Source: a virus
DNA length: 64,000 nt
Strand: one strand, 5' to 3'
Virus record (IMG/VR): IMGVR_UViG_3300045988_174698
The stretch's first letter is position 1. Each line of letters begins with the position of its first letter. The notes beneath the pieces are model-generated. The model worked only from the letters and a program-made list of their open reading frames with translations. It did no database searches and was not told the DNA's origin. Below are positions 1,219 to 20,081 of the stretch, one piece after another. The position numbers and the translations under genes are program-made.

Positions 1219-1689
1219 TTAATTCTGTTTAATATCTTCCTTTGGATTGATTACTGTTGCAGCAATATTAGCATAACAATCTGCAAGTTCATTAAATTTA
1301 TTATTATTGTGGCCTTTTAATCAAAAGAACTTTACTTTATGAAAGTGTAATAGATTAACTATTTTAACTCATAGATCCATATTCTTCTTTGAATTATCTT
1401 GCTCTGCAATTCATCTATATACATGACCATTGTTAATACTACTAACAATATAACTTGAATCAGAATATATTTCTAAATTCCTAGGTTCCTTAAAATATTC
1501 TAAGGAGTATAGAACTCCCATTAATTCTGCTCTATTGTTAGTAGTATGTATATAACCTTGATATAAAATCTTAATTACTTTGTTGTCCTCAGTAATTATA
1601 GAGGCATAACCCCCTTGGTCTGTTGTTGGTTTGTAACTTCCATCAGTATAGATTCTAATCATCAATAATTTCAGCATCGTCAAACTCAA
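1219..1689 (-). CDS. rnhA: ribonuclease HI, with three in-frame TGA codons read as Trp
   Basis: Track ORF 1411..1689 has DGS...GGY...TNNRAEL (RNase H motifs) and ends at TGA. Reading through TGA continues to TAA at 1219 and recovers the conserved C-terminus FFW(TGA)LKGHNNNKFNELADCYANIAA (W-V/L-K-G-H...NE.AD.LA of RNase HI). Confidence 0.7.
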
Positions 1690-1812
1690 TAACTCTTATA
1701 GTTCCCTTAAAGGCAGCCTCTCTAGAAACTAGAAAGTTATTAAAATCTTCTATAAATGCATCTTTGTTTTTATCTTCTATACTAATATAACCATTAAAAA
1801 TGATGTCAACCA

Positions 1813-2193
1813 TTACTCAACAAAATAATTGGAATTAAAAAGCTTAGGATTATGTCTTTTTAAAAGTTTCTTCTCCTTTTCTATCATAATACTCATGACT
1901 TCATCAGCATAGTCATTTCTACGACCTCCAAAGTTTTCAATAACATGAAACGGATTCTCTAAAGCATTACGCTCAGCAATCTTTCGACCAATAGCTTTAT
2001 TAAAGTTATCTACAGGCTGACATACTGCAAGTCCAAACTTAATAGTATGACTATTATCATCATAAACTGCAGCTATAGTATACCTACGACATGGTTTAAC
2101 ATCATAAACAACAGTTTTCTCAATAATAGGATTCACAGAAACAGTGCCTTGATATACAGGAGCACTGTAATAATACTTAACTACTCTACTCAT
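1813..2193 (-). CDS. hypothetical protein
   Basis: 126-aa ORF from track. Confidence 0.5.
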   Translation of the reverse strand: MSRVVKYYYSAPVYQGTVSVNPIIEKTVVYDVKPCRRYTIAAVYDDNSHTIKFGLAVCQPVDNFNKAIGRKIAERNALENPFHVIENFGGRRNDYADEVMSIMIEKEKKLLKRHNPKLFNSNYFVE

Positions 2194-2230
2194 ATCTTTC
2201 TTATTTTTTTATGATTTACATTTTAAATTG

Positions 2231-2479
2231 TTACTTCCTAGAAAGCTTACACCTCCATTTTTCTAGATTTTTACCAAATCTAGCATCAAATATATAATCA
2301 CAGTAACTATAATCATTAACTATTGTTCTAGGATTAGGAATATTACAATCAAAGTCTTTATCTTGAAGTTTAAAAAAATTACTTTTTAAGTAATTCTTTA
2401 TTCTTCTTTTAACAATTCGATGATAAATATTCTTTATACCTTTATCCTTGTAAACTGGAACCTTATAACTCTTTGACAT
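2231..2479 (-). CDS. hypothetical small basic protein
   Basis: 82-aa ORF, Lys/Arg rich. Confidence 0.4.
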   Translation of the reverse strand: MSKSYKVPVYKDKGIKNIYHRIVKRRIKNYLKSNFFKLQDKDFDCNIPNPRTIVNDYSYCDYIFDARFGKNLEKWRCKLSRK

Positions 2480-2501
2480 ATTAAGATAATATTAAATATA
2501 A

Positions 2502-3050
2502 TTAAGTTACTATATTTTTCATAAATGATATTCTAGCAATGTTTCGTAAATCACTAGATAATACTTTAACAACTATATCTTGTCGGCCATTTCTTTGATA
2601 ATAAGTATATAAAGACCTAGACTTATCTATACTCTTATTTGTTACCTTAGAATCAATTAGTTTAATTATGTCAGTTCGTCTACATACAATTCAATCTTTC
2701 TCTCCTTCAAATGCTATATAATCAGCCTTTCCAAATAGTCATCCAGGATTTCCTCGAACATTTTTTAGTTCTACTCAGTTGATATTATAATCTGGAGTAT
2801 TATCAGCTCTACGATTTTTTTTTGCGCTCTTGATGTCAAATGTAAAAGTTCTATTATTATATGTTCATATAATATCAATATGATCATACATATCTTGATA
2901 CTTAGATGGAATCTGAACAGTTCCTCCAACCTGAGATAGTAACAATTCAGAAAACTCAGATTCTTTTATCTTTCCTAATTTAGAGCAATCTATATATTTA
3001 TTCATAATTGTGACCCCATTTTTCAGCTTCTTCAAATGTACTAAAAACAA
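2502..3050 (-). CDS. hypothetical Trp-rich protein, TGA-recoded
   Basis: Track ORF 2865..3050 terminates at TGA. The frame continues through about 7 TGA codons to TAA at 2502..2504 (about 182 aa; ...SRKSWMTIWKGWLYSIW... uses both TGG and TGA). Confidence 0.45.
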
Positions 3051-3261
3051 GATATTCTGGAATCATTGTTACTATATCTTCAAAAGCATAAAATATATGA
3101 GGACCAGAATCTAAATATGAGACTATAATATCCTTAACTGTTCTAGGAGTAGTATCTACAGTATAAGTATCTACAAAAACTCCTGCTTCAAATTGATGGG
3201 TCTTTTGACAAATAAATACTGTCTGCCCAATATCAAATTTGGTTTCTATACTAATTTTCAT
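2998..3261 (-). CDS. hypothetical protein
   Basis: 87-aa ORF, TAA stop; start overlaps the downstream gene. Confidence 0.45.
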   Translation of the reverse strand: MKISIETKFDIGQTVFICQKTHQFEAGVFVDTYTVDTTPRTVKDIIVSYLDSGPHIFYAFEDIVTMIPEYLVFSTFEEAEKWGHNYE

Positions 3262-3262
3262 T

Positions 3263-3871
3263 TTAGTTATCTATTATTTCAATATATCTCTGTTTAGGAG
3301 TAGTAACGTAAGGATTTTGATCTATAATAATAACTTCTATAACAGTATGTTTTCTAGTAAACCATCGTGGTAGAAACCATTTTCGTGGTTTAATAGGTTC
3401 TTTATGAGAACTTAGAGTTATATACTTTTCATTATTATACTCATTACTTAAAGCTATTGTTCCTGGATAGGAAAGGTGTAGACAACTTCTGTTTCATTTA
3501 TCTACAATACAAGTATCTAACACAAACCCAGGTTCTCTAAATATTGTATCTCTAATAACAATAGTATCTTTCTTAGAAAAATGTTCTAATTGATATTGTA
3601 ACGCTTTAATTTTATTATCCTTAACTTTGTTCTCATTAGCTACTTTTTTCATTTTAAGCATTAAAGAATCGCTAAAGTATTCTAATTGCTCAATTGAAAG
3701 CTTAAATACACGATTACTTTCTTTTAATCATGAATTTTCCGCAGCATATGCTTTTTCATTATTTATAGAATTATCTAACGCAATATTCAGATTTCTAATT
3801 TTATTGGTCATAAAAATTATAGCCAATACAAGTAAAGTATAACTTAATATTCTTAAAATTATTTTTTTCAT
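3263..3871 (-). CDS. hypothetical membrane-anchored protein, TGA-recoded
   Basis: ATG at 3871 overlaps the TAA of the upstream gene (TAATG). N-terminal hydrophobic helix MKKIILRILSYTLLVLAIIF. Two in-frame TGA. TAA at 3263. About 202 aa. Plus-strand ORF 3627..3842 is its shadow. Confidence 0.5.
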
Positions 3872-4267: not shown

Positions 4268-4837
4268 TTATTGTTTATTAACAGTGTATCCATGATGTTC
4301 TAAAACTAGTTTACATAAGTTTAAGTACTCTTCTACAGTTAAATCACTTTTAGAATAATTAGCTGCAGGAGTTGTAATACCTAAATTTGATAAATCATTC
4401 GACCCGCCTTTAGAAACTGGTATTATATGATCAAAACAATAATCATCTTTTTCTAAATCAATAGGAGTGCCTGTTAAATAGCACTTTGTTTTTGTGCCAA
4501 ATTTATTAATAATATCTAAAGTCTTAATTTTATTTAAACTCTTCATTCCTCTATTTTGAAAATGTTCAATATATCTCCTTAAACGTTTACGTCATGTTCT
4601 ATTAGAGATTCTTCTACATCCATGAGAGATTCTAGCACAAAAAGTACATAGTCTAGATTTAATTCTCCCCTTAAGTGTATTACGTCATAATGAAGTAGAT
4701 TTTCGTTGTTTACTATTAGTTATATCATTACAATAATATCCAACAATACTTTTGCTACATCCAAGTATCTTAGCAATTTCATTATAACTTTTATTATCAC
4801 TTCTTAAAATAAGAATTTGTTCCTTTAACTTACTCAT
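4268..4837 (-). CDS. HNH homing-endonuclease-like protein with N-terminal HTH, TGA-recoded
   Basis: ATG at 4837; two in-frame TGA (W); TAA at 4268 (189 aa). N-terminus SYNEIAKILGCSKSIVGYY is an HTH. C-terminus CYLTGTPID...DHIIPVSKGGSNDLSNL is an HNH motif. Lies immediately 3' of the intron-containing tRNA. Confidence 0.65.
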
Positions 4838-4851
4838 AATCAACTTATTAG

Positions 4852-5289
4852 CACGAGCTCTCCGATTCGAACAGAGACCGTAGGGTTTGGAGCCCTACAA
4901 TACGGTTTTGCTTACCACTATAGTTTTCACTACCAGTTTTACTGTTTGTAGTCTGGACTATATCAGCTTGATATACAAGTGTGGCATTTAGTCTCTACAC
5001 ATTTATAGAGTAAAGTAGGATACATAGAGAAGTGTACGGCTTTAATTTTCGACCTACTAAGCACTCCGCCTATTTTACACGGCATAAACAGCCTATGTTC
5101 TCTACTGTATTTTACTCTAATTTAGCTCGGTATTATCAGCTATCCATATTTCAGGACCTTAGACTTTCTTAGAAAGCTGATTCGCATGATTTTTATCATC
5201 TTATTTCGCTTTTACCGAATTTGCCACAATTTTCACGCCAAGCGTGCTCCAATTCGAAGACCGCTGTGCTACCATTACACTAAGCTCGC
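4852..5289 (-). tRNA. tRNA gene interrupted by a group I intron; spliced product predicted about 92 nt with anticodon UCA (opal-reading, Trp-type candidate) and a long extra arm
   Basis: 5' exon 5257..5289: GCGAGCT-TA-GTGT-AATGGTA-GCAC-A-GCGGT-CTT. 3' exon 4852..4910: CAAA-ACCGT-[ATTGTAGGGCTCCAAACCCTACGGT]-CTCTG-TTCGAAT-CGGAG-AGCTCGT-G. The only junction satisfying group I rules (5' exon ends in U, intron ends in G) gives anticodon loop CUUCAAA. Anticodon stem GCGGU/ACCGU is formed exon-to-exon. Alternative reading of the extra arm as a CCA anticodon arm is noted in findings. Confidence 0.55.
4911..5256 (-). mobile_element. group I intron (ORF-less, about 346 nt) inside tRNA gene at anticodon position 34/35
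   Basis: Minus-strand core elements: R-like GTGTAGAGACTAAATG (plus 4985..5000) and S-like GATATAGTCCAGAC (plus 4951..4964) in the correct order, pairing GACTA/TAGTC (P7). No ORF in either orientation. Flanked by tRNA halves. Confidence 0.6.
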
Positions 5290-5358
5290 ATTTATTATCT
5301 TTAGTTATACAGCAAAGATAACAAAAATCTGTGAACAATCAAAAATTTAATTAACAAA

Positions 5359-6564
5359 TTATAAAGAAAATTTGCGAATTTTGGTTAAATAAATCTCTTT
5401 ACGATATTGGTTAACTCCACCATAGTCACCATAACTCATCTGCACTTTACGAAGATGGTATAGCTTACCTCCCTCTAATTTTAATTTATCTGCTATATCC
5501 TTTGGAAAAGTAAAATCAATAACCTTGTCAACTGTTATTTTTTTATAGTTACTATCCTTTGAATTTATAACATATATTAAGAAAGCACTTAATATAAGCA
5601 GGTACCACTTAATTTCAGAGTAATCTGTAGTGGGTCTTAAAAATCTGAATTCTACAGTTTTATGGGCATCACCTGAAATTAAATGCATTATATTCATATT
5701 AAAATATCTACCGTGCACTTCCCACTTACGCTCCTCTGTTGAATCATATGAATTAGGTAAATAAAAACTTTGGTCATCATTATACTTATTACCAGTGAAC
5801 CTTTTGTAGAATGTAGGGAGAGATGCAATACTCGGAAAAGGTTTATTGTAAGCTTTACCATTACTTTTATAGCGTTCTGTATAGTAACTATATCTTGGTA
5901 TGTACATACTAATAGACCATTGAAAATGGCACCAGAACTTACACAGACGATTAATATAACTATTATTAATTGGAAAGTTACCAAAATGAATATGCAAAGA
6001 GCAGTTTTTATCGTAAAACGTGTATCTTTCAAGCAGTTTCAAATGCTGTTTAATAATAGGTAAATCTATATGTGTTAATGGAAAAGTTACATATTCATGC
6101 CCATTAATTGAACCATCATACAGTGGTACTAGATTTGTATCAATACAACTTAACCAAGGTATGTTTCCTGCGGATGTTTCATATTCAAGGCCAAAGGTAA
6201 AGTCTTCAATATATGTAAATTCTTTATCAGGTATTAATTTAATATACTTAGGTTTTAAAGATAGTTTTGAAAAATTGTAACATCTATCTATTGGATAATT
6301 AAACACATATTTAGAATCTGTAATGATATTATTAGATAGTTTTAAATCTATCGTATAGCAACAAATATTATTTACCCAATATAATGGTATTTTGCAGTTC
6401 TCGCGTCTTTCCAAATAGGTAATTTTCCCTTCTATTACTAGAGGAATATTTAGTGGGTCTATTTCAAAATAACCATATTCTATATATGCGTAATCAATAT
6501 AGATCACACCTCTTAGTAAGGTATCTCCAGTTTCCCACCTTTTTTTAGTATTATTGTACAGCAT
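5359..6564 (-). CDS. COOH-NH2 amidoligase (glutamine-synthetase-fold, amidoligase_2-like)
   Basis: 401-aa ORF. Motifs GLEYETS, SLHIHFG and VEFRFL match the GxExE...HxH...EFR pattern of phage amidoligases. All Trp encoded by TGG, no TGA. Confidence 0.55.
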   Translation of the reverse strand: MLYNNTKKRWETGDTLLRGVIYIDYAYIEYGYFEIDPLNIPLVIEGKITYLERRENCKIPLYWVNNICCYTIDLKLSNNIITDSKYVFNYPIDRCYNFSKLSLKPKYIKLIPDKEFTYIEDFTFGLEYETSAGNIPWLSCIDTNLVPLYDGSINGHEYVTFPLTHIDLPIIKQHLKLLERYTFYDKNCSLHIHFGNFPINNSYINRLCKFWCHFQWSISMYIPRYSYYTERYKSNGKAYNKPFPSIASLPTFYKRFTGNKYNDDQSFYLPNSYDSTEERKWEVHGRYFNMNIMHLISGDAHKTVEFRFLRPTTDYSEIKWYLLILSAFLIYVINSKDSNYKKITVDKVIDFTFPKDIADKLKLEGGKLYHLRKVQMSYGDYGGVNQYRKEIYLTKIRKFSL

Positions 6565-7873
6565 CTAAATTAACAAGTCTATTAGTTATAAACTGTAAAA
6601 TCTGTGTTTCTAGTACTTCAAAATCGAATGTTGTATTTTCTGCATTATTCTTGAAAATTTCAAAAGCGCTAGGAGCATAGGTATATGTTGTAGAACTTAC
6701 TCCATCTTTTACATTAACTTTATCAGGAGCATTAAATAGAGTAACATATGATCCTTCCATGTACTTCATATAATTGAAGTCTTTGTCAACAGTAGTTAAG
6801 ACACCATTAATAATTCGAGGATTATATGCAAAGTAATCAATAACTTCGGGACAATAAACAGAAAGAACATCATTTGTAAAAAGGTCATCTATATTTTCAA
6901 GGAAATCATAACTTTCTTTATTGGGTAACAATCGCCCATAGAAGAAGTAGAAAGTATGTCTATATGCGTTAGAGCTGGCATATGCTTCGGGTACTAAATG
7001 CCCAGAAGGATAAGCTAGATACATACCGTGTGCTGGAATTTCATTTAACATATACGTACCTGTAGTTTGACTGTAATATAAGTTATTAGAGGTATATGCT
7101 GGGGAATTATCCTTATAAGAAGCACCATATACTGGTATGCAAAGGGTTCTCCTTAATTTTTCACGATTAATATTTCTAATACAGTAAACCTTGTTATCCT
7201 TAATTCGGCATAACTTATTTACAGGAAATTCATAGATTGTTTTTTTACAGTTGATGGAATATAGAGAAGCATACATCGACGAAAAATAAAGTTTACCCTC
7301 GTTAATCATATAAACTAAAGGTCGCTCAGATTTTGTTTTGTTTTCATTATAACAAGAGCTCCCTTTGAACATGAGTACTTCTGGAGTCAAAGATCTATAA
7401 TCTACCATTATAAGAACAGCACAACCTGTATATTCTTCTAGAACATCATATCCATGTTCATAAATAATTTCTGCCAAAATTTGAGAATCAGACATACCAA
7501 GAGTATTAGGTTCTGGAAGATATTTATTAGATAATTCTCCAATATTAAGAATAGTACCATTATGCATTAGTACAAACTCAATTTTGTTACCACGTCTAAT
7601 AACAACTGGCTGAGCCTGATCTAAATTCACAGGATATCCAGGAGAGGCCTTTCGACAATGTAATAAAGCAATAGAAGCTGACTTTGGATAATTTATACTA
7701 GTAGTAAAGTTCCTAAATAATTTTCTGTCACTGACTCCATATTCTACCTTACCATCAATAAAAATACCACAACTATCTCCCCCTCTTTCATCGTTTAGGG
7801 TTCCAAGTATATTAAAGTGGTTTATGTTAAATTCAGTCTTTTCAGTAGAAATTATTCCAGCTAGTCCGCACAT
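6551..7873 (-). CDS. class II (Ntn) glutamine amidotransferase domain protein with long C-terminal extension
   Basis: 440-aa ORF beginning MCGLAGI (catalytic Cys2 of GAT-II/Ntn hydrolases). Contains no Trp codon at all. Confidence 0.55.
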   Translation of the reverse strand: MCGLAGIISTEKTEFNINHFNILGTLNDERGGDSCGIFIDGKVEYGVSDRKLFRNFTTSINYPKSASIALLHCRKASPGYPVNLDQAQPVVIRRGNKIEFVLMHNGTILNIGELSNKYLPEPNTLGMSDSQILAEIIYEHGYDVLEEYTGCAVLIMVDYRSLTPEVLMFKGSSCYNENKTKSERPLVYMINEGKLYFSSMYASLYSINCKKTIYEFPVNKLCRIKDNKVYCIRNINREKLRRTLCIPVYGASYKDNSPAYTSNNLYYSQTTGTYMLNEIPAHGMYLAYPSGHLVPEAYASSNAYRHTFYFFYGRLLPNKESYDFLENIDDLFTNDVLSVYCPEVIDYFAYNPRIINGVLTTVDKDFNYMKYMEGSYVTLFNAPDKVNVKDGVSSTTYTYAPSAFEIFKNNAENTTFDFEVLETQILQFITNRLVNLDAVQ

Positions 7874-8652
7874 ATTCCATAAAGTTTAATTAGATGTTCT
7901 GCCAGTACTTTATTAGATGTATTAATACACTTTTGAACTAAATCTCCTTCTGGCAAAGGAAATCCTTCATTAAACATATCTACAGCTAACATAGTTTGTT
8001 TATAAATCATTGGAAGGTATTTGTCATTAAGCATAAAGCTACTTAGACATCTTGCTTCTACTCCCCACTCAGGACAACGGAAACTTCCTGCTTGACCATA
8101 TAGAGTTCTTCTAAAAGTATCTCTATCATATAATACAGAAGGAACTCCACAGCATAGATCAAAGAACTTAATAAGCTTAACAGATGTATCAAAATTAGGG
8201 TTATCATATCCTATGTGAATGTGTGAACCTGCCACTCTTCTATTATCAGGATAACCTTGTGGCTTATCGTTTTCACACTCTGTATAAGCATCATAATCAC
8301 TAGAACATCCAATTTCATTTGCTTTAGGATCAAGTAATTGATCTTCAGGCACGGGCATAGATGCACTACAACAAATATCAAGATTGTTATCGAATTGTTT
8401 AACCCAATTACGAATCCAATCTTTCATATATTTAATAGAATCTACAAATTCATTACTAGAAGTACAAGGTGGGATATTAAATTCTCCTAAAATACAGTCA
8501 ATCTCCACACCAAATCCTTTTGGCATGCCTTTAGTATATGGTTTACCTTTTTCTCCTGGAATTATTCCAATTGCAGATACTACTTGGTTTGTTTTTGTAT
8601 TAAAAATAAATAACTCGGGGTCTGCTCCAACTGTAATATTTTTAATTTTCAT
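7861..8652 (-). CDS. hypothetical protein, possible second amidoligase/GCS2-like enzyme
   Basis: 263-aa ORF. N-terminal GADPELF and internal GSHIHIGYD are loosely amidoligase-like. Overlaps neighbours by a few nt, consistent with an operon. Confidence 0.4.
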   Translation of the reverse strand: MKIKNITVGADPELFIFNTKTNQVVSAIGIIPGEKGKPYTKGMPKGFGVEIDCILGEFNIPPCTSSNEFVDSIKYMKDWIRNWVKQFDNNLDICCSASMPVPEDQLLDPKANEIGCSSDYDAYTECENDKPQGYPDNRRVAGSHIHIGYDNPNFDTSVKLIKFFDLCCGVPSVLYDRDTFRRTLYGQAGSFRCPEWGVEARCLSSFMLNDKYLPMIYKQTMLAVDMFNEGFPLPEGDLVQKCINTSNKVLAEHLIKLYGICAD

Positions 8653-9289
8653 CTGCTATTAATTTATCAATTATTTCATTTATTCTTATAACAATTGGTG
8701 ATTCAGGTCTCATATATTCAGGATGTCCTTGGATAGCCAAACACTTTGGAAGATTTGGTCTGTCATACAAAACAATTTCAGGTTCACAAGGAGGAGACAT
8801 AACATTATCTCCCTCATATATACTTGACCGATGACTAGTTGAATAAAACAAACATGTCCAATACTTATATGGTATTATAAATGGATACTGCATTTGATGG
8901 TGTGTACTGGTAATTTCATACATTTTATTCGTACTTATCTCTGTAATAGAGTGAGTTATTCGAATAGCATGATTTTCCACATTCTGAATAAGTATGCCAC
9001 CATTCATAATACATAAATATTGACTGCCTCGGCAGATCCCCACAGCTAACTGATCAGGTCTGATTTTCTCAAATTCTTTCTTTTCTGCGAGATCCCTTTG
9101 TAAATTAGCACAAGTAGTAGGATGAGGTTTACAGTTATACAAAGAAGGGTGTACATCTTCTCCACCTGTAAAAATAACAATATCTGCATCGTTAATATCA
9201 TCTACTAGCTCACGCTTAGTAATAAAATTAGCATAGTGTACTTGATTACCAACGACATATACTTTTTTTGTTTTTAGCATAGTATTCAT
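8642..9289 (-). CDS. class I glutamine amidotransferase-like / gamma-glutamyl hydrolase-like protein (putative)
   Basis: 215-aa ORF. ADIVIFTGGEDVHPSLY resembles GATase1/peptidase C26 nucleophile-elbow context. Weak. Confidence 0.4.
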   Translation of the reverse strand: MNTMLKTKKVYVVGNQVHYANFITKRELVDDINDADIVIFTGGEDVHPSLYNCKPHPTTCANLQRDLAEKKEFEKIRPDQLAVGICRGSQYLCIMNGGILIQNVENHAIRITHSITEISTNKMYEITSTHHQMQYPFIIPYKYWTCLFYSTSHRSSIYEGDNVMSPPCEPEIVLYDRPNLPKCLAIQGHPEYMRPESPIVIRINEIIDKLIADEN

Positions 9290-11215: not shown

Positions 11216-11229
11216 AACTATTTTTATTT

Positions 11230-12479: not shown

Positions 12480-13262
12480 CTATTGAATCTCTAAAGTACC
12501 TGGTTCCAGTCCAAGTTCTTTCTCGACTTCTGCGATTGTTTTCTTTACAACCTTATTCTTTACTTTTGGCCAAGCAACATCCATTTTTGTGTAATCACTA
12601 AGTTTAAAACAGTGTGGTGTTGGAACAAAAATCTTCTTAACTTGGTAGAAACTCCCATTTTTAGGGGAATTAAAGCATCCACTTAAATAACCCTTAATTT
12701 CTCCTTTATTGTTAACATAAACAATAGCTTTAGAAGAAATAATAAATCCAAAATACTCTTGATCTTTAACTATTAACTGTACTATTCGCCCAGGTAAAAA
12801 CTCAGACTTAAAATCATTATTAAGATTAGAATCTACCTTATTATCCTCAACCTTATTTTTTTCTTTACCTAGAATCTTTTCAAACTGGTCTATAATAGAT
12901 ATGTCATTTGATTTTAATTCAGGTGATTCAAGTAATTTTAATAGATTCTTTTCTGATTTTAAAATAATATCACTATATAGAGCAAGTTTATTCTCTTCTA
13001 TATCATTAATACCTAACTCTTTAAGGATAGTGTTGTCATCATCTGAACAGAAGATATCACTATCTCCAGTAAGGTAATGAATATTCTGATTATATGTAAC
13101 AACATAATAAGATCTTTTATCTGTATCAATTAAGATCTTATAAGGGTGTCCTGAAAGTAATAAAGATATACTTACCTTAGGATAGTTTAATGTATATCCG
13201 TATCTACTTAAGATAAACAAAATGGTATTTAAACTGTTACCATTATATAATAAATAACGCAT
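12480..13262 (-). CDS. hypothetical protein
   Basis: 260-aa ORF. Confidence 0.5.
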   Translation of the reverse strand: MRYLLYNGNSLNTILFILSRYGYTLNYPKVSISLLLSGHPYKILIDTDKRSYYVVTYNQNIHYLTGDSDIFCSDDDNTILKELGINDIEENKLALYSDIILKSEKNLLKLLESPELKSNDISIIDQFEKILGKEKNKVEDNKVDSNLNNDFKSEFLPGRIVQLIVKDQEYFGFIISSKAIVYVNNKGEIKGYLSGCFNSPKNGSFYQVKKIFVPTPHCFKLSDYTKMDVAWPKVKNKVVKKTIAEVEKELGLEPGTLEIQ

Positions 13263-13315
13263 AATTTGATTTTTTTGTTCTTTTTAGTTAAAAAACAGTA
13301 ACAAGTGAAGGCTCA

Positions 13316-14248
13316 CTATTCTTTTACTTCTATAATTTTATATACAGAATTTTGAGTATGAAAATGATTTTTATCTACGATTTTAGTTACAGGTGAGGTT
13401 GAGAAGCGAAATCCAAGACAAGCTCGAAACCCTACAGTTATAGGTAGACTTAAATATCCTTGAGTAAGGTACCCTTTATTGATTCCATTTGGATGATGAC
13501 CTGGCTTATAATTACAAGTATCAGTATCTTCTAACTTTTCAATCTGAACTTTAGTTTGTGCAGGATAACTACACACCTCATAATATAATTCACGTACACT
13601 CCTCAAAGTTTCCTCATGGTGATCATCTGATTCAGGTATTGATCCTTCACAATCACATTTCTTTAATAGTAGTAATGCTTCGAAGTCAATACACTCTAGA
13701 TTATTAGCTAACCTTAGAATAGCCGACTTGATATCTCTTTGTTTTAAAATATAAAGAGGTTGCATGTGACACCTTACCAAAGAAAGAATAGCTCTTTTGT
13801 ACTGAGGTTTAATATCAGAAATATATGTATCTAAAATATGTTCAGCAATTGGAACTCCTTTAATTGCATGGTCCTTACAGTGGTAAAGTCCATCTTCTCC
13901 CTTTTTTGTAGTAACTGGTTTACCTATATCATGTAATAGAGCAGCAAAGATTAGAATATTTCGATAGTCCATGTCTTGAAAAAGTACTTCATTACTGTTT
14001 TCAATATGCTTCAACATACATTTTGTAACCATACAAGTATGGGTGAAAGCGTCTCCCTCTTTATGCCAAAGTATATTCTGAGGAGTTTCTGACAACGCTT
14101 TAAATTCAGGAATTTTTAAAAGTTCATCCCAAAAGACAATATTAGTTTTTGGATCATAAATCATATTATATAATAAGATTATAAGAGATAATAGTAGTAA
14201 CAAATAAAATAGCTGAAGATTTTGCAAAATGTATAAAAGTTGAATCAT
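13316..14248 (-). CDS. HD-domain phosphohydrolase with N-terminal transmembrane segment
   Basis: 310-aa ORF. AALLHDIGKP and HCKDHAIKG are the H...HD...D metal-binding motifs. Hydrophobic N-terminus. Confidence 0.55.
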   Translation of the reverse strand: MIQLLYILQNLQLFYLLLLLSLIILLYNMIYDPKTNIVFWDELLKIPEFKALSETPQNILWHKEGDAFTHTCMVTKCMLKHIENSNEVLFQDMDYRNILIFAALLHDIGKPVTTKKGEDGLYHCKDHAIKGVPIAEHILDTYISDIKPQYKRAILSLVRCHMQPLYILKQRDIKSAILRLANNLECIDFEALLLLKKCDCEGSIPESDDHHEETLRSVRELYYEVCSYPAQTKVQIEKLEDTDTCNYKPGHHPNGINKGYLTQGYLSLPITVGFRACLGFRFSTSPVTKIVDKNHFHTQNSVYKIIEVKE

Positions 14249-14645
14249 AATCCGACATTATTAGAGATCCTATAGTAATTGCAAATAAAAGGGCAATTGA
14301 CACTATAAAAATATCTCTATACACTTTGTATGTTTTGTTATTAGATACTACCCACCCTTTAAGTTTATATGTTAATATAACACCAGGTTTGTTATGGTAT
14401 ATATGGTAATCTTCTGGAGTAGCCTCAAAACTAAGTATTTTATTAGTTTTTATATCTTTTGCAATAAGATACATCTTACCATTAGTTTTATAGCCTCCAG
14501 ATATCTTTTCTCCTCCTATAATCTCACATTGATATGGATTAGTATTTACATAGTTACTAAATTCAGAGTAATGTAGATTCAAACTTATAAGTATAACTAC
14601 TATAGAAGGAACCCAATAAGCTAAAATTTTAGAAGGTATATCCAT
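14166..14645 (-). CDS. hypothetical membrane protein
   Basis: 159-aa ORF with N- and C-terminal hydrophobic helices. Overlaps the HD gene start by about 80 nt. Confidence 0.4.
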   Translation of the reverse strand: MDIPSKILAYWVPSIVVILISLNLHYSEFSNYVNTNPYQCEIIGGEKISGGYKTNGKMYLIAKDIKTNKILSFEATPEDYHIYHNKPGVILTYKLKGWVVSNNKTYKVYRDIFIVSIALLFAITIGSLIMSDYDSTFIHFAKSSAILFVTTIISYNLII

Positions 14646-14646
14646 T

Positions 14647-15069
14647 TTATATCCATGTCTTTAAAGCTTCCAAAAAAGCTGATTCTAAAGCTTCTTCATA
14701 TGTATTATAATCTACTCCACTTGCATCTATACTATGAGGAGGTCTTACAATTTTCTTAGAAGGATCTATCTGAATATCAACGATTTTATATGTCCAATAT
14801 CCATGAATAGTGGGAACTATTATAATATGTATCTTATGAATATCTCTTAACCATTTTTGAAGTTTAGATTGAGTTGGAGCTAAATAATAATTATCTGTAG
14901 GATCATAAAACTTACAATTCCAAAGCACTCCTTTTTCATCATAACAAGGGCTACAATTTACATATCCTAATTTTGGAAATAGTTTAGATATTCTATTTCC
15001 ATCCATATAATGTTTTTCCTTTGCAAGTTTAGCAGTATCAAAAGTAATATGTGATTCCATTATTCCCAA
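14647..15069 (-). CDS. hypothetical protein (paralog family with 32750..33118)
   Basis: 140-aa ORF. N-terminus HITFDTAKLAKEKHY matches HYNTAKLAKEKGY of ORF 32750..33118. Confidence 0.5.
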   Translation of the reverse strand: MGIMESHITFDTAKLAKEKHYMDGNRISKLFPKLGYVNCSPCYDEKGVLWNCKFYDPTDNYYLAPTQSKLQKWLRDIHKIHIIIVPTIHGYWTYKIVDIQIDPSKKIVRPPHSIDASGVDYNTYEEALESAFLEALKTWI

Positions 15070-15407
15070 GGTAAAATTTTCTGAGTTATTCTTTTATAGT
15101 TATTTAATATTCCTAAGATGTTTGCTCGACCTACAGGATTTGCAGATTGACTTGCAAACTGTGGAAGGACATATCCTTCATCTATACATTTATCTACAAT
15201 ATACTTGGCTATATCGTATCCAGATTTTTCCTCTCCTAAATCATGATCGAGACAAATTGCATAAGGTCATTCTTTTTCAAGGAAGTCAATAGCTTCTTGA
15301 TAAGACTGAGCCCATACAACTTTACAATTTCTGCCAATTGGACTAAAATTCATCCAATCATCTTCCATTGGATTACGAGCATCATCTATCCAAAAAAGTG
15401 TTTTCAT
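15060..15407 (-). CDS. hypothetical receiver/CPR-like small protein, one in-frame TGA
   Basis: ATG 15407, TAA 15060, 115 aa: MKTLFWIDDARNP...EW(TGA)PYAICLDHDLGEEKSGYD.... Not in the track because of the TGA. Confidence 0.4.
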
Positions 15408-15409
15408 AA

Positions 15410-15655
15410 TCATCTAATTCTTAAATGAGAAAGTAAATTAAAAACTATTAATATAATACAAGCCATAGTTGGAATAAAGTTTAAAGGAGTCCAAATGAGT
15501 ATTATAAAGACAAAGCTACTAATATATTTATCCTCAGTATAGTATAAATACATATCTCCTAGAGTAGTTCCTTCTTTAGATTTTATCCTCCAATAAACGT
15601 AGAGAATAATATGATTAATAATTATACATACAAACCAGCAATATACAAATTCCAT
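15410..15655 (-). CDS. small membrane protein (paralog of 17183..17590 C-terminal region)
   Basis: 81 aa. LGDMYLYYTEDKY...IILIWTPLN matches GDLYSFYVDQDNDW...LLIWVPVVN. Confidence 0.4.
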   Translation of the reverse strand: MEFVYCWFVCIIINHIILYVYWRIKSKEGTTLGDMYLYYTEDKYISSFVFIILIWTPLNFIPTMACIILIVFNLLSHLRIR

Positions 15656-15705
15656 AATTATATTTTATTTAAATGAAATTTTCACTACCTAATTATTTAT
15701 AAAAG

Positions 15706-15777
15706 TATCCCCACCTTGATTCGAACAAGGACCTTTCGGGTAGAAGCCGAAGATTCTCTCCATTGAACTATGGGGAC
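15706..15777 (-). tRNA. tRNA-Arg (anticodon TCT)
   Basis: Manual cloverleaf: acceptor GTCCCCA/TGGGGAT, anticodon arm TTCGG-CTTCTAC-CCGAA, T arm CCTTG-TTCGAAT-CAAGG. Confidence 0.7.
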
Positions 15778-15818
15778 TAAATAAATAGTTTATCTTACTA
15801 TTTATATAAATATTATTA

Positions 15819-16148
15819 TTAAAGTTTTTGAATATTCTTCATAAAAACTCTAGTAATAATATCTATATTCATCTTACATTGCTCAAATATATCTATTTTA
15901 TAAGAATCTTTCAGTGGGCTATCCTCTTTGTATGGCCAATGTGCAATTATAAATTCATATTCACATCTAGCCCAGTATTGATACATTAATTTTCTCGTTA
16001 CAAAATCCTTACACTGCTCAAAATTTTCTTTAGAAGGTTTATCTGCTTTATAAGCATCATTATACTTTCTAACTAGGTAAGGCATTATATCATAATAGGT
16101 TGGTTTATTTTTATTATATTCTAACCATAATACTTTGAATGGTATCAT
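15819..16148 (-). CDS. hypothetical protein
   Basis: 109-aa ORF. Confidence 0.45.
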   Translation of the reverse strand: MIPFKVLWLEYNKNKPTYYDIMPYLVRKYNDAYKADKPSKENFEQCKDFVTRKLMYQYWARCEYEFIIAHWPYKEDSPLKDSYKIDIFEQCKMNIDIITRVFMKNIQKL

Positions 16149-16159
16149 AAATTTTACTA

Positions 16160-16357
16160 TTACAATTTTTCACCTAAATAATTAACTTCTATAACATTTA
16201 AATAGTTAACTTTAAATGGATAATCATCAACTATAGTATTATACTGTATACAAACACTTCTTTTATCTGTATCATGAAAGCAAGATACAACATGATTGAA
16301 ATTGATATTACAGTTATATCCTTCACCTATAATATTAATAATATTTATCTTTTTCAT
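16160..16357 (-). CDS. hypothetical small protein
   Basis: 65-aa ORF. Confidence 0.3.
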   Translation of the reverse strand: MKKINIINIIGEGYNCNINFNHVVSCFHDTDKRSVCIQYNTIVDDYPFKVNYLNVIEVNYLGEKL

Positions 16358-16397
16358 ATTGTATTTATGTAAAAGCTCTTAGTAATAAAATCTTAAC

Positions 16398-16682
16398 TTA
16401 AAATTCTAAGTGGTTTTTATACTTGGCAGCACATCGAAGAAACCTATATGGATCCTTTATAAAAATGCGTTTTATATTAGGATTTAAATGGCTAAGATCT
16501 GGGTAAAAACAAAAAAAGCCAAACTTACCTGTATCATCTAAAACAACAACAGAGCTCTGGATTTTATTACCTTTCATGTATATCTGAACGTCGAAATATG
16601 GCCTATACCCAAGTTTAACTAGACTGCTGTAAAATAAAAGGAATTGTTTAGATAATATTATAGTATATGGATATTCTTTCAT
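16398..16682 (-). CDS. hypothetical protein
   Basis: 94-aa ORF; ATG overlaps the TAA of the upstream fragment (TAATG). Confidence 0.4.
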   Translation of the reverse strand: MKEYPYTIILSKQFLLFYSSLVKLGYRPYFDVQIYMKGNKIQSSVVVLDDTGKFGFFCFYPDLSHLNPNIKRIFIKDPYRFLRCAAKYKNHLEF

Positions 16683-16861
16683 TATAGTAGTGAATTAATT
16701 ATTAAGATAGCTTTTTTACTGTCATAACGACCCTTGTAATCAGATTTAGGTATAATATTCAATACCTTATTGACAATATTCTCACCACTAGTAGCATATA
16801 ATGCTCCACTTGGATGATAAAAATCATGTCGTAAATCTACAACAATTAATGTACGCTTCAT
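16682..16861 (-). pseudogene. isochorismatase/cysteine-hydrolase-like N-terminal fragment (59 aa); truncated gene or frameshift
   Basis: MKRTLIVVDLRHDFYHPSGALYA matches the isochorismatase-family N-terminal motif (VIDMQNDF..G.L). The family is normally 170 aa or longer; here TAA occurs after 59 codons. Confidence 0.3.
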
Positions 16862-16865
16862 ATAG

Positions 16866-17183
16866 TTAAATTAAGCATAATAAAATTTGAATAAAGTGTA
16901 GACTTTGATCAATATAATATGAAGTAAAATCCTTCATATACTTTTTATAAAGTCCTCTACACTTCCAGTAATCAATAGCATAATGTCCAACTAGTAACAT
17001 TATTAATTTCCAAATTGCAGCTAATCCCAAAAAGTGTAATGCAATATAAATACCTAACGCCCAAATTGCACAATGTACAAACAAGACATAATTATTTTCA
17101 CATTTATACTTCTTACAAAACTCATCTTGCAACGGATAGTCTAAAACTAAATTTAGAAAGTAAAGTATAATAAAATTTATCAT
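16866..17183 (-). CDS. multi-pass membrane protein
   Basis: 105-aa hydrophobic ORF. Confidence 0.4.
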   Translation of the reverse strand: MINFIILYFLNLVLDYPLQDEFCKKYKCENNYVLFVHCAIWALGIYIALHFLGLAAIWKLIMLLVGHYAIDYWKCRGLYKKYMKDFTSYYIDQSLHFIQILLCLI

Positions 17184-17590
17184 TATCTAATCTTTATTTT
17201 TGAGAACAAACTTCCAATATCTAAGAAGATTTGTATTATCAATACAATAGTATTTACTACAGGAACCCATATTAAAAGGAAGATCCAATCATTATCTTGA
17301 TCTACATAAAAAGAATAAAGATCACCTATTGTGCTTCCACACTTGTCTTCTTCAATCCAATCAAAATACAGGGAAACGTGTAAATAAACAACTCCTATTA
17401 GATAAATACCTAAAATAATTAAAAATGTATACATATTAATCCAGTTTTTCCCAGCATTCTTGATCAAAATTCCAATGTCTAATATCACAAATATTAAACT
17501 CGAAACATAATCCAAGAATGCCGATATTAAAACAAAAGCCTGCATGATCCCCTTTATTATTATAACTAATATGGAAATCAAGCAAGCCAA
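17183..17590 (-). CDS. multi-pass membrane protein
   Basis: 135-aa ORF, several hydrophobic helices. Overlapping ORF 17436..17762 is judged less likely. Confidence 0.4.
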   Translation of the reverse strand: MACLISILVIIIKGIMQAFVLISAFLDYVSSLIFVILDIGILIKNAGKNWINMYTFLIILGIYLIGVVYLHVSLYFDWIEEDKCGSTIGDLYSFYVDQDNDWIFLLIWVPVVNTIVLIIQIFLDIGSLFSKIKIR

Positions 17591-17988
17591 ATGTATTGAT
17601 GTTTATAAACAAATAATAACAAATACCAAATAGTTGAATATCAAAGTCAAAAAATTTTGATAACTTAAAGATTTTAAATCTAATAGACATTTCTAATGAT
17701 TTAAACTCTCCTATAGGGTGCACAAACACCCACCACAAAAAATCTAATTTACAAAGCTTCATATTTTTCTTAAATTAGAGTAATAAGCGGTTATAGACTA
17801 TACTTCTAATTTGGGTTAATAACTAATATTATTGTAATACTTTATATCTTCAATATAAGTTTTCTGTGTATCTCCAGTAGGCCCTATCATAATATTAGGT
17901 TTTATTGTTCCGCATGATATATTAAGTATTACTAAGACTATTATAACTATTTTTACTATTGTTTTCATCTTTATGTTATTAATGTTTA

Positions 17989-18061
17989 GAGTAGGTAACA
18001 GGATTCGAACCTGTGATATAGCTTTTGCAGAGCTGGGCCTTAACCAACTTGGCGATACCTA
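17989..18061 (-). tRNA. tRNA-Cys (anticodon GCA)
   Basis: Acceptor GTAGGTA/TACCTAC, anticodon arm AGCT-CTGCAAA-AGCT, T arm ACAGG-TTCGAAT-CCTGT. Confidence 0.65.
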
Positions 18062-18066
18062 CATGT

Positions 18067-18157
18067 GCGGTAAGGGTGGGATTCCAACCCACGCAGCGAT
18101 TTCTATACGCTCTAATGCATTTCAAGTGCATCCTCTTAAAGCTCTTGAGTACCTTAC
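18067..18157 (-). tRNA. tRNA-Ser (anticodon TGA, reads UCA; class II)
   Basis: Acceptor GGTAAGG/CCTTACC, anticodon arm ATGCA-CTTGAAA-TGCAT, long variable arm, T arm GTGGG-TTGGAAT-CCCAC, 91 nt. Confidence 0.65.
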
Positions 18158-18195
18158 CAAATTTATCTATCTATAAACTTTCTAGTAAGTTATTT

Positions 18196-18268
18196 GCTGG
18201 ACCGATAGGATTCGAACCCACGTTACCCAAATTAACAGTTTGGTGCTTAAACCACTCAGCCACAGTCC
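18196..18268 (-). tRNA. tRNA-Asn (anticodon GTT)
   Basis: Acceptor TGGACTG/CGGTCCA, anticodon arm CCAAA-CTGTTAA-TTTGG, T arm GTGGG-TTCGAAT-CCTAT (two G-U pairs), discriminator G. Confidence 0.6.
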
Positions 18269-18421
18269 AGTACATTTTATATATTTATTACAGATAACTC
18301 TGCAAAAGTATTTGCAGAAATATTATAAATTAATTAGTCGAGAATGATAGTAATGCTCTATCCCCTAGAAATCCCAAATTTCTCGTGCTACTTCCACACC
18401 CCATTCTCGATAAACTATCCT

Positions 18422-18655
18422 TTATTCAAGGATAGCGTTTAATTTTGCAAGAACACCTTCGTTTTTCTTACGAATGTTTTCAAGAGCTTCTTTTTCAGCT
18501 TGAGCTGCTTTGATTTCCTCGTCTCTTGCTGCAATTTCTAATTCTGCAGAAGCATTTACTTCTTTAAGACCATCAATTGCAGTTTTGAAAGCATTTAAAA
18601 CATTGTCTACTTTCTTAGACAGATCTACAGATGTTTTACTTTTTGAATTAAACAT
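18422..18655 (-). CDS. hypothetical coiled-coil protein
   Basis: 77-aa ORF, EIAARDEEIKAAQAEKEALEN heptads. Confidence 0.4.
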   Translation of the reverse strand: MFNSKSKTSVDLSKKVDNVLNAFKTAIDGLKEVNASAELEIAARDEEIKAAQAEKEALENIRKKNEGVLAKLNAILE

Positions 18656-18712
18656 GTTTAATAGTTTTTTAAATTAATGCTGTGAGGAGATTTTTGGGAC
18701 CCCCAATAATAG

Positions 18713-18784
18713 TGAACCATATGAGACTCGAACCCCTCTATTTCCTTGCAAAGGAAATGTGCTCGCCTTTACACTACATGGCCC
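18713..18784 (-). tRNA. tRNA-Ala (anticodon TGC), slightly irregular T stem
   Basis: Acceptor GGGCCAT/ATGGTTC including G3-U70 and A73 (Ala identity), anticodon arm TTTCC-TTTGCAA-GGAAA, T loop TTCGAGT with one mismatch in the stem. Confidence 0.5.
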
Positions 18785-18791
18785 AAAATAC

Positions 18792-18977
18792 TTAAAGTTT
18801 AATACGAAATTGTCTTATTTTATTACATATTTTACAACGCTGTATATAAACTTTTTCAACTTTAACTGGGCGACTTTGATAGTCATTTTCAAACACCTTT
18901 TTTAATTTTTCTTCAACTGTCTCCCAATCATGTACATGAAATTTCAATTCAAACCATTTCTTTATAAGTTCTAACAT
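18792..18977 (-). CDS. hypothetical small protein
   Basis: 61-aa ORF with CxxC near the C-terminus. Confidence 0.3.
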   Translation of the reverse strand: MLELIKKWFELKFHVHDWETVEEKLKKVFENDYQSRPVKVEKVYIQRCKICNKIRQFRIKL

Positions 18978-19004
18978 ATTATAAAGTTTTTAATAAAATT
19001 TTAG

Positions 19005-19086
19005 AGCCTCCTGTCGGACTCGAACCGACGCGTTCAAATGAAGACGGATTACAAAACCGTTGCAGTCGCCGCTGTGCCAAGGAGGC
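19005..19086 (-). tRNA. class II tRNA, Tyr-like architecture; anticodon GTA (Tyr) or TGT ambiguous
   Basis: Acceptor GCCTCCT/AGGAGGC, D loop CAGCGGCGAC, 14-nt variable arm, T arm GTCGG-TTCGAGT-CCGAC. Anticodon region ACGG-TTTTGTAAT-CCGT has a 9-nt loop. Confidence 0.5.
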
Positions 19087-19202
19087 TTATAAACACTATC
19101 GTAGTTTGCACGTCTGATTTTTATTGCCACAGAAACTCCATACAAATGATCAATTTATATGTTAAGAGTTGTTACGCCGCTAATGTCAAATTTAGAAATA
19201 AC

Positions 19203-20081
19203 TTATAATGACATAAATTGGTTATAGTTATCCTTGTATCCTATAGAAGTATTCACAAGAAGCTCGCCATGCATGCTTCTACCAGGCATTGGCACCATAA
19301 AGTCATTTCCATATATGTTAGTTAAAACACTTAAATATACTTCTGGAGCAGGAAACATTCCTCACTCAAATTTAAGGTAAACCTTATTGTTATAGTCTCT
19401 AGCGTTTCTAAGACTTTGTATCTTATTTGGAAATGTAAGATTACCAAATGACTCTGTGGAGAGTACATTATATCGTTGTCGTAGCTCTTGATATTTTTCT
19501 CTAAGATATAAAAGTCTAGATGTGTTTTCCTTAGAAGAATCATAACATTGTATTCTTGTTTTTACAGCCAGTGCTTCTAGTTTAATTAAGTGAAGCTGGT
19601 GCATAAACTTTTGTCTCTCAACTAGATCATCTGGAACATTATCAAAAGGACATATATCTATAAAGATCCCTTGGTTAAAGGTAAAATGACCTTCTAAATC
19701 CTTTTTGTGAATACATGTTGTGTCACTTCTTCTTAACTTCGTACAGCAATAAAAGGTACTGTCTGTTCAGTCATTTTGAACAAAATATGGATAATTCAAC
19801 TCTTTAACTGCACACTCTAAAAATCTATCATAGTCTGTTCTAGGCATAGCAATATCAATATCATCGTCCCATGGAATAAATCCACCATGTCTGACAGCAC
19901 CAAGTAATGTTCCTCCATCTAAATAGTGCTTCAAATGATATTTATCACAGATATTTTTAAACTGTCATAGCAAATCTAGCTCAACTCCTCAAAGTTCTTT
20001 TCTTTCTTTAGACACCAAGAATCCATTTTTTACTTCTGCTTCAAAAAAGTTATCTGGTAATTTAATATTTAAGTTTACCAT
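19203..20081 (-). CDS. LicD-family phosphotransferase (phosphocholine / phosphopolyol transferase), four in-frame TGA
   Basis: ATG 20081, TAA 19203, 292 aa. [28 protein letters not shown] is the LicD signature. Start overlaps the upstream cytidylyltransferase gene by 20 nt. Confidence 0.65.

Follow-up and report, generated by a model that had tools for sequence, protein, structure and literature searches.

Recoding of TGA in blocks of genes, with the early genes left in the standard code, has been described in phages (Yutin 2021, PMC7886860; Borges 2021, 10.1101/2021.08.26.457843; Pfennig 2022, 10.1101/2022.06.29.495998), as have variably recoded replication genes, early-region homing endonucleases rich in TGA, and suppressors heading recoded stretches. 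Early, middle and late gene classes are distinguished in the crAss-like phage phi14:2 (10.1101/2020.03.07.982082). A suppressor tRNA is detected in only about 35% of TGA-recoded phage genomes (10.1101/2021.08.26.457843), and several opal-recoded genomes of the Zeta group of crAss-like phages are listed without a detectable suppressor (PMC7886860). The subject of this report is a 64,000-nt stretch of phage DNA (IMG/VR record IMGVR_UViG_3300045988_174698), denominated the window in all that follows. Genes that avoid TGA and genes that prefer it to TGG for tryptophan (Trp) coexist in it, and a suppressor tRNA(UCA) gene split by an intron marks a boundary between them. It is likely that the host uses the standard code, and that TGA passes from stop to Trp in the course of infection by means of this split suppressor. 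Bimodal TGA usage and timed recoding are both already known, and the phage is one well-documented example of them.

The window resembles the Zeta crAss-like phages, of about 145-192 kb (PMC7886860; Lera phage, PMC12386605), for the crAss-type TerL and portal genes, the group I introns, the inteins and the tRNA block. TGA corresponds to Trp in TerL, helicase and structural genes in both, and recoding is found mostly in late genes. It differs from them in that the suppressor is split by an intron, and TerL is far from those of the named Crassvirales. Similarity extends to the Borges model (10.1101/2021.08.26.457843) and to the Mgcod blocks (10.1101/2022.06.29.495998), where genes compatible with the standard code come first, and suppressor-dependent lysis and structural genes follow. 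Homing endonucleases that prefer TGA in early regions, variably recoded replication genes and a suppressor at the start of a recoded stretch are also shared. In contrast, the switch operates here gene by gene, the minus arm has its boundary at the suppressor gene instead of at a change of strand, and TGA stops persist in the TGA-free zone.

TGA and TGG codons have been counted in the window joined to a left flank of 9.7 kb (from L001, 99.96% identical) and a right flank of 6.6 kb (from L008, 99.0% identical). Genes were called with TAA and TAG as the only stops, and with a codon-usage score that ignores both TGA and TGG; the short open reading frames (ORFs) in the set are uncertain. The share of the window covered by ORFs of at least 100 aa is 43% under the standard code (code 11), and 63% under code 4. 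Because code-11 ORFs have zero TGA by construction, the informative quantity is the TGG count. The 79 genes with Trp codons feature 151 TGA and 141 TGG in total. Heterogeneity among them is marked (chi-square 186.6, 78 degrees of freedom), and was reached in none of 20,000 label permutations. Genes having only TGA or only TGG are 25 out of the 43 with at least three Trp codons, against 5.6 expected. In a binomial mixture, two classes with TGA frequencies of 0.06 and 0.80, each including about half of the genes, have a Bayesian information criterion of 213, to be compared with 290 for one class and 221 for three. The first-pass annotation had suggested such a bimodality, and a uniform TGA/TGG ratio is not seen in the 80 kb surveyed. 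The plus arm with the right flank (93 TGA, 25 TGG) is homogeneous at 0.79 (permutation p 0.15). The A-ending share of the codon pairs AAA/AAG, GAA/GAG, CAA/CAG, UUA/UUG and AGA/AGG is 0.63-0.80 in TGA-free genes and 0.70-0.91 in permissive genes, the TGA share of TGA plus TGG 0.03 and 0.72-0.79, respectively. Where allowed, TGA follows the neutral A-over-G rate, accounting for about 80% of Trp codons; elsewhere, it is absent. TGA-free genes encode Trp as TGG only and end at TAA or TAG, with a real TGA stop in at least one of them.

The two arms diverge from one region, the minus-strand arm extending from 1 to about 42.3 kb, and the plus-strand arm starting at about 42.9 kb. A TGA-free zone of about 37 kb (5359..42007, minus strand, read from 42.0 to 5.36 kb), which includes 46 called genes, all the canonical tRNA genes and a tmRNA-like gene, is transcribed ahead of the suppressor. 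Only eight TGA codons are found in it: four belong to the LicD gene, one to the cREC gene, and three fall near the start of short ORFs (codons 7, 8 and 15), in 5' extensions that are doubtful. Along the minus arm, 8 TGA and 84 TGG are counted before the suppressor, and 34 and 23 after it, left flank included (Fisher 4e-11). The suppressor gene lies precisely where the TGA-free zone gives way to the first recoded genes of the arm. The end of the zone is made by a cluster of ten genes (5359..14248, minus strand), encoding Amidoligase_2, GATase_6, COOH-NH2_lig, Peptidase_C26, RimK-like/ATP-grasp-like, IMPDH/GMP reductase and HD members, according to Pfam, plus three unknown proteins. The cluster had been described as made of clean standard-code genes, and it does have 0 TGA and 24 TGG; Trp codons are missing altogether from the gene of its 440-aa GAT-II protein, said to lack Trp. 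Were TGA used at the permissive rate of 0.79, 24 straight TGG would be met with a chance of 5e-17.

After the suppressor, strictly TGA-free genes are intermingled with recoded ones (HNH, RNase H, helicase, DnaB, LAGLIDADG). In the mixed zone 1219..3871 (minus strand), RNase_H (1219..1689, Pfam E 4e-26; 3 TGA, 0 TGG) and two genes with no family match (2502..3050, 4 TGA, 0 TGG; 3263..3871, 2 TGA, 2 TGG) are recoded. The latter two are real genes, as full-length orthologues spanning the TGA positions are found in relatives. Short genes lacking TGA are interspersed with them on the same strand (2231..2479 and 2998..3261, one TGG each; 1813..2193, no Trp codon). Further downstream are the strictly TGA-free genes 854..1216 (0 TGA, 2 TGG) and 328..816, ferritin-like (Pfam Ferritin; 0 TGA, 3 TGG), both on the minus strand and both with 0 TGA in four relatives. 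Recoding is also found inside the TGA-free zone. The LicD gene (19203..20081, minus strand, E 2e-39) has 4 TGA and 1 TGG, and its recoding is conserved in all the crAss-like relatives examined (TGA/TGG 4/1, 4/0, 3/3 and 3/3), to be compared with 0/5 in unrelated small phages. It overlaps by 20 nt the IspD-like gene 20062..20742 (Pfam IspD), which has no TGA and thus belongs to the other class. The cREC_REC gene (Pfam; 15060..15413, or from an ATG at 15407, minus strand) has 1 TGA, at codon 49, and 4 TGG, and varies in relatives (0/5, 1/4, 1/2). An HNH endonuclease recognized by eye from its motif (23314..23691, plus strand; 3 TGA, 0 TGG) is strain-specific, no homologue having been found in the relatives that cover the region. 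In-frame TGA had been reported in seven of the genes on the two strands: all are present and the counts match, and only two alternative starts differ.

ARAGORN and Rfam, run by default, find 12-13 ordinary tRNAs in the window, none with a UCA anticodon. When introns are allowed, ARAGORN detects a tRNA across the 515-nt, seemingly empty gap between the amidoligase and HNH genes. The gene (4852..5289, minus strand) is missed by default tRNA finders because an intron splits it after U34. Exon 1 (5257..5289, 33 nt) includes the 5' strand of the acceptor, the D arm, the 5' strand of the anticodon stem and C32-U33-U34. Exon 2 (4852..4910, 59 nt) includes C35-A36, the 3' strand of the anticodon stem, a long extra arm (GUAGGG-CUCCAAA-CCCUAC), the T arm, the 3' strand of the acceptor and the discriminator G. 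Given a 5' exon ending in U and an insert ending in G, the ligated anticodon loop reads CUU/CAAA, the slash marking the junction, and the anticodon UCA. The predicted ligated exons meet as GGUCUU/CAAAACCG, with GCACAGCGGUCUUCAAAACCGU as junction sequence. Bases 3-33 of exon 1 are 100% identical in all relatives, and similarity ends exactly after CUU; in relatives, GGUAAG closes every insert, and CAAAACCGU with the remainder of the tRNA comes next. The exact 22-nt ligated junction is found uninterrupted in 11 IMG/VR phage contigs. ARAGORN identifies these loci as tRNA(tca) of 93-97 nt, and 6 of the 11 adjoin a tRNA-Trp(CCA) gene. The exon junction is proven, at the level of sequence, by these homologues devoid of the intron. 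When 12 distinct sequences are aligned, 98.4% of the cells pair, against 38-46% in slid registers, and 12 pairs in the acceptor, T and extra arms exhibit compensatory double changes, against none in 500 shuffles. Once the intron is removed in silico, ARAGORN at default settings recognizes the window sequence as tRNA(tca), and the fold of lowest energy is a cloverleaf with the extra arm.

The 5' half of the tRNA is about 91% identical to annotated phage tRNA-Trp genes. E. coli tRNA-Trp features A1-U72, G2-C71 and G3-C70 in the acceptor, and G73 as discriminator. G73 is invariant in the family, and the same three pairs are found in 9 of the 12 members; the window allele has G1-U72, C2-G71 and G3-C70. 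The tRNA is probably a Trp-type opal suppressor, predicted to be charged by the host tryptophanyl-tRNA synthetase (TrpRS). The extra-arm stem, of 4-6 bp, covaries (4862..4887, minus strand; L025-L070), at least eight different stem sequences being found in the tRNA(UCA) family. The loop is in turn invariant (U-CCA-AA, either CUCCAAA or GUCCAAA), and the same as the anticodon loop of tRNA-Trp. The extra arm may, speculatively, be an identity mimic for TrpRS, a decoy, or what is left of a duplicated anticodon arm. The INPHARED phage collection includes no close copy of the suppressor, and there are no tRNA genes in the 9.7-kb left and 6.6-kb right flanks. Coding density under code 4 and code 11, compared in the short loci hosting uninterrupted suppressors, gave no usable signal. 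The 70 nt upstream of the suppressor (5290..5358, minus strand) are conserved along with the tRNA, even in different genomic contexts.

ARAGORN labels the tRNA as tRNA-Sec, with which it shares the UCA anticodon and the long extra arm. The assignment is ruled out by the acceptor stem, of 7 and not 8 bp, by the D stem, of 4 and not 6 bp, and by the correspondence of TGA sites to Trp; the D loop is 7 nt long. Other candidate suppressors have been discarded. Two tRNA-like elements (34724..34852 and 34988..35092, minus strand) have no UCA in a credible anticodon loop, and both are missing from 90-93% identical relatives that also use TGA. A tRNA(tca) called by low-threshold ARAGORN (31437..31523, plus strand) has a poor D arm and mismatches, and is one among 54-209 mostly spurious calls. 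The two tRNA-like elements, of 129 and 105 nt, match the Rfam tRNA model with 32.8 and 34.7 bits, and have good acceptor, D and T arms, 6-nt 'anticodon' loops and additional hairpins. One features a Trp-like acceptor (A1-U72, G2-C71, G3-C70, G73). A 6-nt loop is also found in the tRNA at 2553..2625 of the relative L024.

The intron (4911..5256, minus strand) is 346 nt long, lacks ORFs and separates U34 from C35 in the anticodon loop. Rfam Intron_gpI aligns the core strings AAAUUCGG, GAGACUAAAUGCC and GAUAUAGUCC with high posterior probability. At the 5' boundary (GGUCUU/C) a GGAG is located nearby to form P1; the 3' boundary is GGUAAG/CAAAAC. The 5' exon ends in U, and the intron in G. It is probably a group I intron, predicted to be self-splicing. 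At least six different inserts, of 341-707 nt, are found at the identical site across relatives. Among the 39 resolvable IMG/VR genes that carry exon 1, 31 are split and 8 are uninterrupted, and the insertion site is identical in all. Group I introns are known to interrupt the anticodon loop of bacterial tRNAs, as the cyanobacterial tRNA-Leu(UAA) and the Azoarcus tRNA-Ile. The site between 34 and 35 is that of the tRNA-Leu(UAA) intron; the U at the exon end, the G at the intron end, the IC3-like core strings and the coexistence of alleles with and without intron are reminiscent of such bacterial tRNA introns in general. The differences are that the interrupted gene is here a phage opal suppressor, and that at least six inserts are found at one site, some with endonuclease ORFs containing TGA.

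Endonuclease genes accompany the split suppressors. A free-standing HTH-HNH gene (4268..4843, or from an ATG at 4837, minus strand; Pfam HNH_4; 2 TGA, 0 TGG) starts 8-14 nt after the tRNA, and is the first recoded gene downstream of the suppressor. It is found only beside the allele with the 346-nt intron, at 7 of the 8 such loci, and at no others. A hairpin followed by a T run is located by this gene, at 4237-4262. The HTH-HNH protein looks like a free-standing endonuclease that collaborates with the ORF-less intron. Some of the inserts in relatives encode in turn an HNH or other endonuclease-like ORF that contains TGA but lacks TGG. In at least two genomic backgrounds, the HTH-HNH gene is associated with both the 346-nt intron and the distinct exon-2/acceptor variant (G1-U72, C2-G71).

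The proposed switch would work as follows. TGA-free genes (the nucleotide-/peptide-ligase cluster, the tRNAs, the tmRNA, the SPFH and ferritin-like genes) would be served first by the unmodified host translation apparatus. Next, the suppressor would undergo transcription, splicing (probably of the group I, self-splicing type) and processing, and the host TrpRS would load it with Trp. The replication enzymes, the homing endonucleases, LicD, and the lysis and structural proteins would be completed only afterwards. In-frame TGA would act as a gene-by-gene translational lock, rather than as a simple strand-wide block, because the overlapping IspD-like and LicD genes differ in class, and TGA-free genes persist downstream of the suppressor. 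The first-pass annotation had interpreted the pattern as timed recoding in a standard-code host. The codon-specific bimodality, the TGA stop and the phage's own tRNA(UCA) favour this model; the notion of the minus arm as one early arm with a few exceptions has to be abandoned. In a more elaborate and rather doubtful version, the suppressor would be a 'two-headed' Trp tRNA, the maturation of which times the code switch: splicing would create the UCA anticodon, the CCA loop would supply the host TrpRS with the CCA identity element missing from that anticodon, and the TGA-bearing homing endonucleases within or next to the intron would need their own functional tRNA to be produced.

Several data weigh against the proposed switch. 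The strictly TGA-free ferritin-like, 854..1216, Metallophos and AAA_24 genes sit downstream of the suppressor among recoded genes, and the recoded LicD gene sits 15 kb upstream of it, so gene order alone does not set the class. The terms early and late are presumptive, being assigned from position, function and analogy, and the codon survey covers 80 kb of a genome of about 166 kb. The intron matches Rfam Intron_gpI over the full length, but its 18.5 bits (E 0.03 when 751 nt are searched) do not reach the gathering score of 50, and no group I match is found by Rfam in the inserts of relatives. Lastly, a Bacteroidetes promoter-like sequence, TTTG-N19-TAyCTTTG (TTTG-N19-TAnnTTTG), located upstream of the tRNA, could allow its expression from the start of infection. 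The same stretch forms a hairpin (UAYCUUU-11 nt-AAAGRUA), the stem of which covaries (C-G versus U-A). This upstream element could be a promoter, a processing signal or both. As to promoters at large, gene upstream regions show no strong enrichment in any k-mer, the coding strand of intergenic DNA has only about twice as many copies of the Bacteroidetes -7 motif, TAnnTTTG (23 versus 12), a sigma-70 and terminator scan is at chance level, and direct repeats reveal no promoter family. Temporal classes are not readable from the sequence.

TGA is still used as a stop in the TGA-free zone, where four genes end at TGA under code 11. The TGA closing gene 28295..28549 (28292..28294, minus strand) is replaced by TAA in L021 and L023, otherwise 92-94% identical, and is therefore a real stop. 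Read-through at 28292 would join this gene in frame to 27884..28282. A probable stop is found at 30312..30314, at a TGAtATG junction with the next gene, and similar ones at 29594-29596 (TGA-gct-TAG) and 15410-15412 (TGAttATG), all on the minus strand. These three are conserved as TGA in relatives; their usage as stops is deduced solely from the gene junctions, and read-through would add 1, 8 or 12 codons. Stops bear on the alternative that fares best, according to which TGA-free genes are dual-coded, and yield the same protein with or without suppressor, being for example expressed throughout infection or in a carrier state. The class of a gene would then mirror the duration or the state of its expression, and not the time of its onset. 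Pfennig et al. call such blocks dual-coded (10.1101/2022.06.29.495998). The alternation of classes downstream of the suppressor, the different class of the adjacent, overlapping IspD-like and LicD genes and the rarity of TGA stops in the TGA-free class (at most 4 in about 50 genes) would all fit. Dual coding appears nonetheless unlikely, as the 37-kb TGA-free zone is contiguous and ends at the suppressor gene, and holds at least one real TGA stop, which would be read through once suppression is on.

Conservation of the two classes has been monitored in relatives fetched via the amidoligase gene, a small gene of the tRNA island and LicD. Each gene keeps its TGA class at 34-97% protein identity. 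No relative has any TGA in the amidoligase-to-HD block, the ferritin-like gene, 854..1216 or the Metallophos gene, and the cluster 5359..14248 is still devoid of TGA in L014, L017, L019 and L020, at 34-96% protein identity. RNase H has 3 TGA and 0 TGG in every relative. Permissive genes drift, TGA/TGG counts changing for example from 4/0 to 2/3, or from 2/2 to 3/3 to 0/3. Because the class is conserved across relatives, bimodality is maintained by selection. Were TGA-free genes recent acquisitions from standard-code organisms, no selection against TGA would be needed. The LicD homologues of unrelated small phages, which have TGG only, are in keeping with this possibility, and the amidoligase/GATase/ATP-grasp cluster is reportedly, from the amidoligase work of Iyer and Aravind, a known mobile phage module. 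Recent acquisition is however very improbable: the absence of TGA is kept across up to 66% protein difference, while TGA and TGG replace each other in permissive genes; the A bias of the phage is already seen in the other A/G codon pairs, and the GC content equals that of the neighbouring sequence. Polymorphism among strains is limited to 7 changed cells at 5 distinct Trp-codon sites, too few for a selection test. The sole TGA-to-CGA change found among strains is located at codon 110 of gene -603..227 (1..227 in the window, minus strand), which is TGA in the window and in L001, and CGA (Arg) in three other strains.

The meaning of TGA emerges from alignments to standard-code proteins. All three TGA of the RNase H gene are aligned with Trp of E. 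coli RNase HI, and the TGA thought to encode the Trp of the W-V/L-K-G-H motif does align with the W of WVKGH. The ten TGA sites of TerL correspond, in standard-code crAss TerL proteins, to 33 aligned cells, of which 14 are W, 13 F or Y, and 6 other residues. From the two alignments it follows that TGA is Trp, not Gly or Sec. The host plausibly uses the standard code. Hints are the crAss affiliation, the exchange of a TGA with a TAA stop, and the SPFH gene, as 24 of the 25 genome-collection contigs carrying a 63-70% identical homologue are binned as Bacteroidales, though some may be phage themselves. The TerL relatives are crAss-like phages of Bacteroidota. Bacteroidales use code 11. A host reading itself TGA as an amino acid, as do Mollicutes (code 4) and Gracilibacteria (code 25), is hardly tenable. 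The GC content of about 30% and the 80% or so of TGA among the Trp codons of permissive genes do resemble code-4 genomes; yet TGA is completely avoided by half of the genes and exchanged for TAA at one stop, the phage has its own tRNA(UCA), TGA sites align with Trp or aromatic residues and not with Gly, and relatives infect Bacteroidota. That gene calling, strand composition or expression-linked codon bias generated the whole pattern as an artefact can practically be dismissed, despite code-11 ORFs being TGA-free by construction and short ORFs being uncertain, as TGG counts are independent of ORF finding, the named genes have family matches or conserved orthologues, both classes lie on the same strand, and the highly expressed structural genes are the TGA-rich ones.

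Exact copies of two window proteins are found on metagenome contigs of 164-168 kb, and one window protein is indexed in 1456 blocks of a metagenome collection; the window therefore belongs to a common crAss-like gut phage of about 165 kb, of which it is the central part. The size of 164-168 kb, the introns, the intein and TGA recoding agree with the published description of the Zeta group (PMC7886860), to which the phage may belong. The plus arm (44051..64000) hosts lysis, packaging and structural genes, all TGA-permissive, recognized by PHROGs matches. Their products are endolysin/tape-measure-like, PD-(D/E)XK exonuclease, crAss-type TerL (phrog_6681, 3e-61), portal (phrog_6547) and fibre-like proteins. 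TerL is 28-31% identical to those of named Crassvirales by tblastn, over 66-79% of the query; the nearest record, 44% identical, is MT835470, an unannotated 117-kb sequence from the human gut.

The portal gene is split in two parts (57202..58380 and 58731..59768) by an ORF-less group I intron of 356 nt (58378..58733, plus strand). The intron matches Rfam at 58344..58686 with 67.1 bits, and had been missed by the scan of the full window at gathering threshold. The strains L005 and L007 lack it, and encode a single portal protein of 736 aa. Other insertions are found in relatives. In L002, an 1127-nt insert with a LAGLIDADG ORF (1752..2878) interrupts the TGA-free COOH-NH2 ligase gene, at window position 8226/8227. 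In L006, a Hint/Hom_end intein is located within TerL (about 5100..6300).

Per 100 codons, the TGA-free zone has 1.27 Trp codons, fewer than the 1.60 of the plus arm. Genes wholly lacking Trp codons are 6551..7873 (minus, 440 aa), 59768..60568 (plus, 266 aa), 42969..43751 (plus, 260 aa) and 20062..20742 (minus, 226 aa); orthologues of 6551..7873 and 20062..20742 in the fetched relatives have none, or at most one TGG. All the 24 called genes of the plus arm, right flank included, end at TAA, and none at TAG, which terminates 9 of the 46 genes of the TGA-free zone (Fisher p 0.02). The preference could be an expression-linked choice of stop, or the avoidance of a second suppressible stop. The tmRNA-like gene of the TGA-free zone (21905..22326, minus strand) matches Rfam RF00023 with 52.3 bits (gathering score 47). 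The predicted tag is AKNTVRKMANKVMPLATPMRAQVAFAA, with a UAA end, and the acceptor stem is imperfect. A tmRNA is also found in the relative L021 (47.6 bits), and in the phages L028 and L034, which host members of the suppressor family. It is conceivable that the tmRNA is linked to ribosome rescue during the code switch. Four copies of GTTTAAAAATRCAA, organized in two 40-nt tandem units (39476..39559, plus strand), lie just upstream of a replication-initiator-like gene (39660..40421). They are close to the turn of the GC skew (about 38-40 kb), and the interval 36.0-39.6 kb is almost free of ORFs. The repeat region may be the replication origin.

A link between catalytic RNA and the maturation of phage suppressor tRNAs, with a proposed control of the code switch, has been put forward for theta (HDV-like) ribozymes (PMC10879173). 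The ribozymes belong there to another class and flank the tRNA, whereas the putative catalytic RNA is here inside the tRNA. The abstract of the same paper deals with UAG-to-Gln recoding, and the terms intron, opal, UCA, TCA, tryptophan and variable do not occur in the accessible text (PMC10879173). No description of an intron-split suppressor tRNA, or of an extra arm with a CCA loop, was found in the searchable literature, the coverage of which is incomplete.

What appears to be new here is the intron-split tRNA(UCA), which provides a checkable explanation for the missing suppressor, at least in this lineage, abundant in gut metagenomes. The position of the suppressor would be a physical marker of the code switch, and the need for splicing suggests a delay at the RNA level. 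The extra arm, similar to the Trp anticodon arm, offers an idea of how a synthetase may charge a suppressor, of interest for the engineering of orthogonal pairs decoding UGA. If the interpretation is true, intron-split suppressors could explain part of the recoded phages described as lacking a detectable suppressor tRNA.

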